Origin: Eledone cirrhosa
Lineage: Eukaryota
Direction: 5' to 3'
DNA: 64,000 nt
Assembly: GCA_964016885.1 (NCBI GenBank)
Contig: OZ024743.1
Location: 283,340,001 to 283,404,000, forward strand
A program made the position numbers and the translations under genes. The notes beneath the pieces are model-generated. The model saw only the letters and a program-made list of their open reading frames with translations, was not told where the DNA came from and did not search any database. This document shows positions 7,436 to 64,000 of this stretch, piece by piece (position 1 is the first letter of the stretch; every line of letters starts with the position of its first letter).

Positions 7436-7564
7436 TTTTAATATAGATGAGATTCTACAGGACTAGAACTGTTTCATTCATTAGAAATCCTTAGGAATCT
7501 GATTCCTGATGATTTCTAAAGAATGAAACAGTTCTAGTCCTGTAGAATCTCATCTATATTAAAA
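7436..7564. repeat. 129-bp near-perfect palindrome (PLE-type inverted terminal fragment)
   Basis: ttttaatatagatgagattctacaggactag...ggaatc T gattcc...ctagtcctgtagaatctcatctatattaaaa; axis at 7500. Confidence 0.95.
7501..7549 (+). ncRNA. Type-I hammerhead ribozyme motif, complete
   Basis: GATTC-CTGATGA-T TTC TAAA GAA T-GAA-ACAG TTCTAGTC CTGT-A-GAATC. Stem I GATTC/GAATC, stem III ACAG/CTGT, predicted GUA cleavage after 7544. Confidence 0.8.
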
Positions 7565-8159
7565 TATATATATATATATATATATAGGGAGACAGAGTAT
7601 GTGTGTATATATATATAGAGAGAGAGAGAGACAGGGGAACAAATAGGAGTGTAGTAAAAACTAATATACACTCACAGACACACAGAAACACACACATGCA
7701 TACACACACATACACACACATATATACACACACACACAGAGTAGGTATTTAAAAAGTAGCAGTATAGTTACCATTGTCTAATCCAATTAATAAAAAGAAA
7801 AACTAGTCTTGCGTTTCTTTAATTAACGTGTCATATTCTTTGTTTGTTTTTTGTGGGGTTTTTTTGTGGAGGGGTTGTTTCTTTCTTATTTATTTGATTT
7901 TATTTCTATTTTAATAAATATTTTTTTAGATATTTCTTTCATTTTATTTTATTTTGTTTATTTGTTACATTTTTATTTATATATTTCTTATTGTGTTCCC
8001 AAAACATTTAATGACATTCATAAGTTCAAAACAAGACAAATTTGGTTTTCTATGAGTACAGAAAAAAAAGAAAAAAAAAAGAAAGAAAGTTAATTTGATG
8101 TTAGATTGTCATCATTGGTATAAAATAGATTCAATTCTACATCTAAAATAATTTTCATT

Positions 8160-8740
8160 CTGTATGTGTGTGTATGTGTGTGTGTGCGCATGTGTGTGCG
8201 TGTGTGTATGTGTGAGTGTGTATGTGTACTTATATACATATATTTAAAAATATATAAATATATATGTCATCATCATCATATATATATATACATATATATA
8301 TATATACATATATATATATATATACATATATATATATACATATATATATACATATACATATATATATATACATATATATATATATATACATATATATATA
8401 CATATATATATATACATATATATATATATGCATATATATATATACATATATATATATATATACATATATATATACATATATATATATACATATATATATA
8501 TGCATATATATATACATATATAAAAAATAAACCAAAAAAGCCTTCAATACATCTGTTTAATTACATTGAGCTATATCTTATACTGTCATTTCTATAATAT
8601 GAAGAGGGTGTTTAACTCCAACACACTCTAGTATTTTAATTCTTATATACATATATATATATATATACATATATATATATATACATATATATATATATAT
8701 ATATATACATATATATATATATACATATATATATACATAT
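8160..8740. repeat. Compound (TG)n/(TA)n/(TACA) microsatellite
   Basis: Direct reading; explains the spurious YI-repeat ORFs. Confidence 0.95.
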
Positions 8741-8741
8741 A

Positions 8742-9783
8742 GATATGCCCCACATGCAAACAATGGGTACACAAGAGATGTAGCAGGATCTCAGGAAGCT
8801 TAATTAAGAATGTAGGCTTTACATGTAGCAGCTGTGCTGGGACAGCAAGCAGCAAACAGCCACAGGAAACAAGTACCACCAATCTCTGGCAGGGCCCTGT
8901 AGAAACAGTAGACAGCTTCTGCTACCTAGGTGACCGAATTAGCAGCGGAGGTGGGTGTTCAGAAAGTACAATAACTAGGGTAAGAACGGGATGGAAGAAG
9001 TTTAGGGAACTACTACCACCGCAAGCTGCAAAAGGCTTCTCCCTCAAAATGAAAGGCAGACTGTATGATGCATGTATCCGAACAGCGATGTTGCATGGTA
9101 GTGAGACCTGGGCACTGAAGGTGGAAGACTTACATAGATTAGAGAGAAACGAAGCCTGCATGCTCCGATGGATGTGTAACAGTAATATACACGAACGACA
9201 AAGCATAAATGAATTGAGAGAGAGACTGAGCATAAGAGGAATCAAATGCTGTGTGCAGGAGAGACGGTTGCGCTGGTATGGACATGTGATGACAGCTGCA
9301 TAAAAAGGTGCAGAGCACTAGAAGTCGATGGAAACCGCGGAGTGGGGAGACCCAAGATGACCTGGGATGAGGTGATAAAAGCCGACCTTACCCAATTACA
9401 CCTCTCAAAGGCGATGACACACGACCGTGACCTCTGGCGTCACGCAGTAATACAGATATCCGACCTCCCATGGGTACAAGCTGAAGCATATAGACAATAT
9501 GCCCCCACACCCCCCACCGCAAGGTGGTCGTGGAGGTGCCACGGCAAAAAAGCACCCAGCCCACACTGTAAAGTGGACGTGTAGGCGCCACGAAAAAGCA
9601 CCCAGCACTCACTGTAAATGAGGTTGGTGTTAGGAAGAGCATCCAGCTGTAGAAATCAAGCCAAATCAGTTCCTGTATGAGCAAGGCATGGTCAGCCGAC
9701 CAGACACTGCCCACAACAGGACAACCCGTCTAACCCATGCTAGCGTGGAAGAACGGACGTAAAATGGTGATGATGATGATGAC
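8742..9783 (+). mobile_element. RTE LINE family B, 5'-truncated, with a small internal deletion near 9290
   Basis: CPTCKQWVHKRCS, FCYLGD, MLHGSETW, RLRWYGHVM and GRPKMTW; distinct 3' UTR; (GAT)n tail. Confidence 0.9.
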
Positions 9784-9959
9784 ATATATATATATTTCGT
9801 TTCTGAATTTGTTTAGCAAGATTCTTTATCTGAAAACGTGTGTTGAAACCGATATTGTTATACTTTGGGAGGGTCATGTTGCCAATAAGAAACACACGCA
9901 CCAGATGCTTTCACTTCAATTTATTATAATAAATTTATAAATTTAGGAATTTATAAATT

Positions 9960-61320: not shown

Positions 61321-61706
61321 TGTGGCTGGCCATTGCCTAAAAGTGCACCACATTCTATAATCTGACGATTGCAATACTTTTAGCAGAGTTTGCAGCCACC
61401 ATGTACGCATGTATGTATGTATGTATGTGTATGTATACACATATATAATACACACACACATATATATGTATATGAGAGAAAATAGAAGTACCCATTTTAT
61501 GTAGTCTAATTCACGTTTATGTAAAATGGATATGCATAACAAAAAGGAAAGAGACAACTTACCAGTTAGTTGTACTCAACGTAGTCGATATCTTAATGAT
61601 ACAAAATGCGTCACTGAGTATAGTACATAGGCTCCAAGGAGTATTCCATGGAGTAATATATTATGAACAGGATATTAGGAAAAGCTAGGTAACATTTGTT
61701 GAAGTT

Positions 61707-61992
61707 CAAAGAAACATTTATTATACAATAAAGTCTCTAACACGTGTTTCAATACAATTATACAATCACCTACAGAAGCTGAATTATTATTTAATCCACT
61801 AAATTGCCCTGCATAGTTGAATACTGCATATCATCTCTCTGATGATATGCAGTACACCAGAGAGAGGATATGCAGAATTGAACTCTGTTGTGCAACATAG
61901 TGGATTAAGTAATAATTCAGCTTTCGTAGGTGATTGCATAATTGTATTGAAACACATGTTAAAGATCCTGTTGTACAATAAATGTTTCTTTG
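61707..61992. repeat. ~286-bp diverged palindrome containing an HHR
   Basis: caaagaaacatttatt...tgcatatc.tctct faces agaga.gatatgca...aataaatgtttctttg; small internal hairpin at 61822-61854. Confidence 0.9.
61834..61965 (+). ncRNA. Hammerhead motif with a long stem-II loop
   Basis: TCTCT-CTGATGA-T ATGCAGT...ATTGTAT T-GAA-ACACATGT-T-AAAGA. The other arm keeps the perfect ACACGTGT-T-AGAGA. Confidence 0.65.
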
Positions 61993-62807
61993 CCTAGTTT
62001 TTCCTGATATCTTGTTCATATTATATATATGTGTGAGTGTGTGTGTATATCATTATCATGATTTAACATTAATTTTTCTTGCTAGCAAGCATTAGATGGG
62101 TTGTCACTGATCAAGTCAGTCTTCTTACATATATTGATGACCAAGTGTTTTGCATCTTATTTACATATATTCCCACATGCTCTATATCATCATCATCATC
62201 ATCATCGTTTAACATCCATCTTCCAGCATGGGTTAGACAGTTTTGTCCCACTTTATGTGTGTGTATATCAATTTGAAAAGATTAAAAAGCCCAAACAATG
62301 CTTTACTGCAATAAAATGCTCCCAGCCCACATTGTAAAGTGGTAGTGCTGGAGCCACAATAAAAAGCACCCAGCTTTCATCTTGTAAGGTGGTAGTACTA
62401 ATGTCCCAATAAAAAAAAAGTACCCTGTCCACCCTGTTTGGTTAATTACATACCATCACCAACACCACCAACAGCAGCAACTATTTATATAATTAATATG
62501 ATTTATAAGAGGGATGAAATTAATCAGAGATAATATAATAGTATATTAAATATCAAATGATACATATTATATATAAATATAGTAAAATAAAAGATATATA
62601 ATATATATTTATACATAGTATATATTATATTATTTATTATGTATAAATTAACGATTTTATTTATTATATACTATTTACAATTTGCGTGTAGGTAGGTCTC
62701 TCTGGAAATAATGTTGAGGGGAGCTGAGGGTATTTATGTGGCCATGGGGGCGGGGGAGTTTTGAGAACTTCTGGTCTATAACAATGAATGCTGGTCTTTT
62801 CTTTTAA

Positions 62808-63014
62808 CCCTTTAGCATTTACATTACTCTATATTTACTATTATATTTTCATGGTAAAGGCTTTAAAAGAAATAAAACTGAATCTATGAGATTTTGATAT
62901 TATTTATTTTGAGAACAATACTTAACACAAGTATGAGTGGCTGGTTACAGCTGGTTTGAACAGAAAAAGGCGAGAGAATTCTGGCCGGATACAGCCAGTT
63001 TTAATGCTAAAGGG
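62808..63014. mobile_element. TTAA MITE family A
   Basis: TTAA|CCCTTTAGCATT...AATGCTAAAGGG|TTAA. Confidence 0.88.
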
Positions 63015-63898
63015 TTAAATCTTTTTTAGGTAAGCCAAGACATTTATGGTATTGCTACAGCTGCAAGAATACCAAAACACCTCAACAGACATTATATTTG
63101 GTGAAACGTAATGTTTTTGTTGGTAATTCCAGATTTGTAATAGGTCAATCACTGGTTCATTGCATTTCTGACAGCAAGAATGATAGCAACTCGTGCAGAA
63201 CAGATACCACACATGCTACTTTTTATTCAAAAGTATCATAAAATTAGGGTTTTCTCTCAAATGTTTATATCTTTGCCTATATGCATCAGTGAAAAATATA
63301 TATATATATATATACAAGTGTCTTTAGCAGAGAGCACTCTGTTGCAAGTATTTAGGCTAGGTCATTGATCTGAAGATAACTGCCTTCCTTACCTCTCTCC
63401 TTCCCTTCCTTCTTCCTCTCCCTTTGCTTACCTCCCTTTTCCTTTCCTTCTTCCTCCCTTTCTTCCCTCAGTCATGGAGGTCCTGAAAAATGTCATGGAG
63501 GCTGCCTTTCCTTTTTTAATTCAGTATATATATGGAAAAGCAAATGTAAAATGATGTAATGTGTGTATGAGTGTGACCGTAATTGTGTGTGTGTAAGTCT
63601 GTGTGAGAATAATTGTGTGTGTGTGTGTAAGTCTGTGTGAGAATAATTACATATGTGTATTATGGTAATCTTAATGCTTTTTAGCTAATGCTGTGAGACT
63701 TTGAACAATTGCCTGTTATCATGTGAACAGAAAAAGGGAGATTGGTATAACCTTGATTCAAACACTATTGGGTCCTTTCAGAAGTCCTGTACCCTTCCTT
63801 CTTATCACACACACACACACACACATCAGTATGTGATTGATGGCTGAGAGAAAAGATTACTCAATTCTGAAGTGGAGTTTAAATATTCATTTTATTAA

Positions 63899-64000
63899 GG
63901 CTAAATAGTGAGTCTTGTTACTCTGGAGTGTTGCCTGTTCATTACAGGGTCATCAGATAAACAGGCAAAACTCCGGAGTAACAAGACTCACTATTTAGCC
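63899..64000. repeat. Palindrome with a degenerate HHR; may extend past the window end
   Basis: ggctaaatagtgagtcttgttactc...gagtaacaagactcactatttagcc. Minus strand reads CTGATGA(63956-63950)-C CCTGT AATGA ACAGG C-[G]AA-ACTCCGGAGT-A by consensus of the two arms. Confidence 0.85.

Follow-up and report, generated by a model that had tools for sequence, protein, structure and literature searches.

Palindromic inserts in Eledone cirrhosa are head-to-head leaders of Penelope-like elements, with a fixed fold point in some families

Five palindromes and the families they come from

We analysed a window of 64,000 nt from Eledone cirrhosa (assembly GCA_964016885.1, contig OZ024743.1, positions 283,340,001–283,404,000) containing five DNA palindromes, P1 to P5, which a first-pass annotation had read as unrelated inserts that fold at a hammerhead ribozyme. 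An inverted-repeat search of the window recovered all five palindromes (Table 1), and each is formed by two short copies of the 5′ leader (pseudo-long terminal repeat, pLTR) of a different Penelope-like element (PLE) family, placed head to head; the families are numbered 1 to 5 after the palindromes. Every one of these inserts sits in (TA)n and has a tail on one side. The tails were absent from the first-pass description, whose statement that the palindromes share no sequence is correct for the arms but not for the tails, in which the motif TTGAGTAC is common to families 1, 3, 4, and 5. The fold of P1 has a z-score of -21 against 200 shuffles. An assembly fold-back artefact was rejected, given the 6–23% divergence between arms, the asymmetry of the ends and the recurrence of the form throughout the families.

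Table 1. Palindromic inserts and tails (window positions; arm ends are relative to C3 of the hammerhead core)
Feature	Position	Strand	Inverted repeat; arm identity; axis	Remarks
P1 one-sided tail, family 1	7364..7435	-		About 70 nt; matches family-1 tails running into the ORF; outer end approximate
P1 palindrome, family 1	7436..7564		7428-7572; 91%; 7500	Arms end at -7/-6 and -5
P1 hammerhead, complete native type-I	7501..7549	+		C3 at 7506; predicted cleavage after 7544
P2 palindrome, family 2	10486..10616		10480-10622; 94%; 10551	Arms end at -2 and +2; junction-made CTGAAGA at 10550
P2 one-sided tail	10617..10697	+		Outer end approximate
P3 one-sided tail	20410..20488	-		Outer end approximate
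P3 palindrome, family 3	20489..20600		20489-20600; 89%; 20544.5	Plus arm begins exactly at the initiator-like A (20542); family without CUGANGA
P4 one-sided tail, long	61478..61655	-		Matched by eye to tails of L212, L215 and L227; outer end approximate
P4 palindrome, family 4 (old, low-copy)	61656..62026		61656-62026; 77% (core arms 85%); about 61841-61850	Long stem-II insert; complex centre
P5 one-sided tail	63826..63889	-		Outer end approximate
P5 palindrome, family 5	63890..64000		63899-64000; 84%; 63949.5	Extends past the window as far as 64012; arm ends at -1 and about +13; mutated GAAA in each arm

Genome-wide motif searches over the 3.0-Gb assembly, for which the reversed-pattern controls gave 0 matches, retrieved 53,897, 48,441 and 67,071 matches to the arm motifs of families 1, 2, and 3, respectively, and 1,735 to that of family 5. 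Family 4 gave 3 motif matches and, in a DNA search, 42, of which 2 are the arms of P4 itself. As first proposed, the inserts are tiny and non-coding, and they originate from PLEs, since long copies tie the arm families to open reading frames (ORFs) for a reverse transcriptase (RT) and an endonuclease. The arms correspond to the 5′ leader because the ORF follows on directly from the tail. The ORF is complete in family 1 (758 aa in L136, reading out of the tail; L numbers designate fetched loci) and in family 2 (712 aa in L198), and partial in families 3, 4, and 5. L120 has part of it in family 5, and the endonuclease lies upstream in L062 (family 3) and, at a distance of about 0.9 kb, in L216 and L219 (family 4).

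A single ORF with RT and C-terminal GIY-YIG endonuclease is thus linked to the repeat, as in endonuclease-bearing (EN+) PLEs, with weak Pfam matches to GIY-YIG (E values of 0.019–0.069, below the cutoff) and RT motifs read by eye. The proteins carry RWR, DKT, YRDD, CxCX5C, CxxC, and CxH motifs. The marks of the Hydra clade are an RWK-type motif, DKT, a CxCX5C linker, and CxxC and CxH around the endonuclease (PMC8557442). The products from L136 and L198 contain RWR, DKT, CNC-X5-C, CDLC, and CMH/CKH, and the full Hydra set occurs in families 1 and 2 only; their resemblance to the published Hydra supplement alignment (PMC8557442) was judged by eye. On these motifs, the parent elements appear to be Penelope-like, with Hydra-type proteins. 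The fetched loci of these families are inserted in (TA)n, as Hydra elements are, and the spacing of the pLTRs is 3,258 nt in L198 and 5,966 nt in L136, above the tendency of Hydra elements to be under 3 kb. In family 1, the ORF and the pLTR are separated by a long 3′ region rich in microsatellites (L024, L025, L026, and L136), and a family-1 fragment also lies inside a larger repeat of at least 1.5–2 kb, present in many copies (L001, L006, L007, L008, L014, and L023).

The hammerhead core and the wall of arm ends

The presence of hammerhead parts in every arm had been overstated, because a complete native type-I hammerhead occurs in 1 of the 10 arms, the plus arm of P1 (stem I GATTC/GAATC, CTGATGA, 3-bp stem II, GAAA, 3-bp stem III and GTA), while the minus arm of P1 has a mutated core. 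The CTGAAGA of P2 arises at the junction, the native core of family 2 being CAGAAGA; arms of this family read TTCAGAAGA in 61/92 cases and TTCTGAAGA in 4/92. CUGANGA is found neither in the arms of P3 nor in family 3, which shows CAGAAAT/CAGAATT and no stem II. CTGATGA is present once in P4, in a thrice-switched centre with neither arm complete, and we rejected an origin of this core at the junction because relatives carry it natively; in P5 it is on the minus arm. No hammerhead family appeared among the best 150 of the 263 weak Rfam matches to the window.

Hammerheads were called by descriptor match, and self-cleavage is predicted. At the family level, a predicted type-I hammerhead is present in the pLTR of families 1 and 5 and, by eye, of family 4, occurs as a U4-to-A variant in family 2, and is absent from family 3. 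The predicted hammerhead of family 1 is supported by covariation of stem I between subfamilies together with a stem II that is constant around a variable loop (72 of 77 tallied arms). A literature search for natural U4A hammerheads gave nothing relevant. The abundant families 2 and 3 both read CAGA instead of CUGA, and the commonest family-2 junction accidentally restores CUGAAGA. The earlier suggestion that the hairpin would mask the ribozyme agrees with the computed folding energies, of -89.9 kcal/mol for P1 vs. -2.2 kcal/mol for the hammerhead secondary structure; the hairpin would form if P1 is transcribed.

The axis of the palindromes had been placed at or beside the core, and its non-random position there holds for families 1 and 3 but is weak in family 2. 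Counting by hand the head-to-head pairs among the first 100 exact matches listed, the axis lay within about 12 nt of C3 in 20/24 pairs of family 1, 15/19 of family 3 and 2/11 of family 2. The corresponding values for families 1, 3, and 2 in the fetched loci were 31/36, 47/54, and 6/18, although these loci were partly picked for close pairs, so that the share of short arms is inflated. The fixed fold point in families 1 and 3 is real.

Arm ends pile up at a wall situated 4–9 nt upstream of the core. The per-base termination rates at -1 to -7 from C3 were 0.13, 0.044, and 0.17 for families 1, 2, and 3 (105, 87, and 147 arms, three family-1 arms that are parts of one larger repeat having been dropped), and those at -15 to -45 were 0.0015, 0.0013, and 0.005. 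This 30–90-fold drop past the wall rules out smooth 5′ truncation plus ascertainment.

The wall coincides with the A of a word that we take to be initiator-like, located at -6, -5, -4, and -9 from C3 in families 1, 2, 3, and 5, respectively. In long copies, the A of CCAGAT in family 1 follows TATAAATA at 30 nt, and the A of TTAGTC in family 3 follows TATTTATT at 31 nt. In family 5, whose box was examined after the TATA-distance rule had been framed, the A of TYAGTT, at -9, follows TATATATA/TATTTACA at 29–30 nt, and the short copies stop at -8/-9; additionally, the ORF-bearing copy L120 begins at the wall. TATA and initiator (Inr) motifs have been reported in PLE pLTRs (PMC3846280).

An extra G frequently precedes this A. 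In hand counts of the first 100 listed matches, the non-native letter before the A of family 1 was G in 75/100, and in 15/18 of those with a TA-rich simple repeat as flank. For family 2, a non-native G preceded the A in 65/100, vs. 11/100 one base upstream (Fisher p = 1e-15), from totals of 3,146 and 706 matches, respectively, and several junctions of this family have the G on both arms. A reverse-transcribed cap G has been described for full-length L1 and SVA copies (PMC2912911). Short copies of family 3 in L070, L131, L134, and L176 show poly-T expansions at their 5′ ends, which suggests reiterative synthesis at the template end.

The first-pass explanation for the fold point was that reverse transcription stops at the ribozyme, as by a stall of the RT at the folded or cleaved hammerhead. 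This would account for the axes within about 12 nt of C3 in the fetched pairs of families 1 and 3 and for the increase of termination inside the core. However, the wall sits on the 5′ margin of stem I, where the RT would leave the structure, and there is no pile-up at the cleavage site, where 0/38 tail-anchored arms of family 1 and 3/71 of family 3 end (the count covers these two families, as the family-2 set is too small, with 12 arms). Likewise, the wall is equally sharp in family 3 although the core is absent, follows the initiator-like word from family to family and bears the extra G. We therefore regard a stall at the ribozyme as quite improbable.

Since the wall shows AG in families 1, 2, 3, and 5, it could also be a 3′ splice site, with pyrimidines and AG before stem I, and there is a precedent in the Penelope element of Drosophila virilis, in which the end of an intron maps to helix I (PMC4209133). 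Loci L036, L037, and L044 raised the idea that family-2 copies have a first exon in common ahead of the AG, which the heterogeneous upstream letters exclude. Because short copies retain the AG and the letters upstream vary, with no common first exon, we consider it extremely unlikely that the wall is a splice junction.

Origin of the hairpins

A fold point at TATA-like and initiator-like words, accompanied by an extra G, likely reflects run-off of the RT at a capped RNA start and not a stop at the ribozyme. The wall may represent the RNA polymerase II start and the G a copied cap, and on balance we consider it probable that the hairpins are run-off cDNAs that were primed twice on capped, uncleaved PLE RNA and linked in head-to-head orientation. 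The element enzyme would nick both strands of the (TA)n site, and reverse transcription would start at two internal sites, 50–150 nt into the element's own capped RNA, and run off the 5′ end of the uncleaved molecule, with the cap copied as G. The two cDNAs would then be joined by microhomology or end joining, commonly after trimming, with the axis spread about 10 nt to each side. Longer copies would come from read-through transcripts on which initiation takes place at the downstream repeat, and the products, with neither promoter nor ORF, would be dead ends. The hammerhead would lie at the axis only because the transcript begins 4–9 nt upstream of the core.

The arms have two fixed 3′ ends, short and tail, and the tail is on exactly one arm (56/62, 16/16, and 96/98 arms), so that the inserts show the inverted 5′-truncated copy with one-sided tail typical of EN+ PLEs. 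This pattern agrees with the anole PLE, for which two internal RT start sites define the tail in vitro, both target strands are cut and extended, and uncleaved RNA is the main substrate (PMC11167929). Additionally, short arms are joined to non-overlapping inverted tail pieces (e.g., L043, L065, L066, L076, L088, L089, L137, L194, and L200), which, with the G on both arms of some junctions, favours two cDNAs over the folding back of a single cDNA that the first-pass annotation had proposed. Chimeric inserts combine families 3 and 2 (L048:1370-1620) and families 2 and 5 (L113:1350-1520).

The closest alternative maintains run-off at the RNA 5′ end but has a single cDNA prime itself by folding back, as proposed for PLE junction palindromes (PMC3846280), with the endonuclease then resolving the second arm at the short end. 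Both arms share the loop variant in 16/21 cases (shuffled mean of 4), and the junction most often found in family 2 exploits a small natural inverted repeat, with 10/44 short arms ending at -2. Self-priming would, however, need later asymmetric deletions to produce the tail-only partners without overlap, the G on both arms and the solo short-end copies that reach the wall, and we consider it unlikely.

A further possibility is that the hairpins are a non-autonomous class of elements mobilised again as a unit, which resembles the self-propagating ORF-less class initially envisaged. Some junctions do recur, and one complex family-5 junction occurs at two loci with different flanks (L236 and L237). 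Yet three recurring family-1 junctions, followed in 16 loci selected for them, occur with differing flanks, tail sides and loop variants, indicating that the junctions recur independently; moreover, the inserts have no promoter, on the outside they always finish at one of the two fixed ends of the element, and long copies extend the families into RT-endonuclease ORFs. Such remobilisation is therefore highly improbable.

Several observations weigh against run-off from a capped start. The wall is weaker in family 2, in which 47/87 arms pass it and a TATA-like word is found in one subfamily only (TATTTAC at -33), and has a softer edge in family 3, in which 13/28 of the arms that extend beyond -7 end at -8 to -14. 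Termination already climbs within the core, at +7 to 0 (0.013–0.036). For family 4, a wall is predicted at -18; the 4 matches available to judge it are all long, and P4 itself turns at about -6 to +2. In family 1, the predicted start lies 3–6 nt downstream of where the full-length copy L136 begins. Among fetched loci, the selection of close pairs inflates the share of short arms. The partner arm's own letters account for some of the G excess, and the family-2 control for G is imperfect, as direct joins to the TA flank enter the list for -6. Finally, the putative transcript start is deduced from DNA, and the sharing of loop variants between arms fits fold-back equally well.

Taken together, the hairpins are by-products of a known class of elements and not a new ribozyme retroelement, and in some families the fold point is best explained by the transcript start. 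A broader view, which seems to us rather doubtful, is that hammerhead-bearing PLEs routinely integrate strong-stop-like cDNA pairs, made from their capped leader, that record the template, and that the hairpins also act as a double-stranded RNA brake that silences the parent and masks the ribozyme. If true, genomes would hold a base-resolution record of the PLE transposition template, with near-perfect hairpins of the 5′ end of the element in the tens of thousands. Proposed templates include antisense RNA (PMC3846280) and circles cleaved by the ribozyme (PMC4209133); a sharp wall in the genome that bears an extra G and coincides with an initiator on the sense strand would instead count as fossil evidence, formed in vivo, that the template is sense, capped and uncleaved. 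Run-off would also explain the abundance of tiny dead copies and the need for tandems to keep the promoter, and PLE start sites could be mapped from DNA alone. Annotators should be warned that these hairpins mimic microRNA precursors and miniature inverted-repeat transposable elements (MITEs); Rfam gave matches to mir-548 and MIR7723 below threshold in the window.

Other contents of the window and comparison with known systems

The window holds five further inverted repeats with no hammerhead at the axis, at 40690-41090, 21786-22217, 28527-28981, 17815-18101, and 30222-30278. The first two face each other over (TA)n or a short spacer and are presumably pairs of inverted short interspersed nuclear elements (SINEs). 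The decayed remnant of a Hydra-type endonuclease, accompanied by an inverted piece of 39 nt, occupies 17815-18176, and a weak tRNA-like match just under threshold (22324-22381) is perhaps a SINE head. An ORF fragment of a long interspersed nuclear element (LINE), which we take to be RTE-type, directly abuts the short end of P3 (20601-21606), with similar fragments at 2-934, and a CR1/L2-like LINE lies on the minus strand at 41669-43878. About 14 kb, at 46001-60000, show extreme strand skew (GC skew of about -0.85 and AT skew of up to 0.98) and are probably a C/A-rich tandem array.

A MITE or fold-back DNA transposon was discarded given the asymmetric ends and variable centres, with target-site duplications unreadable in (TA)n. 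Retroviral minus-strand strong-stop DNA is a short product of fixed length primed near the RNA 5′ end, and the hairpins would be alike in both respects.

Inverted truncated copies, tails, junction palindromes, and TATA and Inr motifs in the pLTR have already been published, as have hammerheads in the pLTR, among them pairs on opposite strands, and an octopus Hydra element. The literature searched, which omitted most subscription papers and older papers on PLE structure, gave no account of a fixed boundary marked by a cap. The inserts share with EN+ PLE insertion units (PMC3846280; PMC8557442) the head-to-head inverted copy, the one-sided tail, the junction microhomology, the pLTR hammerhead and the (TA)n targets; they differ in that each of the two copies stops at a fixed boundary, an initiator-like A preceded by an extra G, and their tails are 65–180 nt, vs. 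30–40 nt in the published units. The hairpins are also ORF-less, of 110–370 bp and, by extrapolation, in roughly 10^4 copies per family. The Hydra clade (Craig et al.) has the same RWR, DKT, CxCX5C, CxxC, and CxH motifs, C-terminal GIY-YIG and (TA)n insertion, whereas here the units are longer (about 3.3 kb in family 2 and about 6 kb in family 1) and the hammerhead core is non-canonical (family 2) or lost (family 3). The D. virilis Penelope is described with a TATA-less promoter and an intron before the ribozyme (PMC2377424), a layout different from that of our families.

Non-LTR retrozymes are likewise described as non-coding, derived from pLTRs and with a type-I hammerhead, but they form head-to-tail tandems with a ribozyme in each unit (bioRxiv 10.64898/2026.07.22.740005); instead of tandem units each with a complete hammerhead, we found single head-to-head pairs whose ribozymes are mostly broken. 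Twin priming, reported for L1 and SVA, is similar in that two primed cDNAs are inverted and joined and that run-off at the capped end of L1 leaves a G (PMC2912911). In contrast to the L1 products described there, both cDNAs of our inserts usually span the same leader, which results in a palindrome that is directly integrated.

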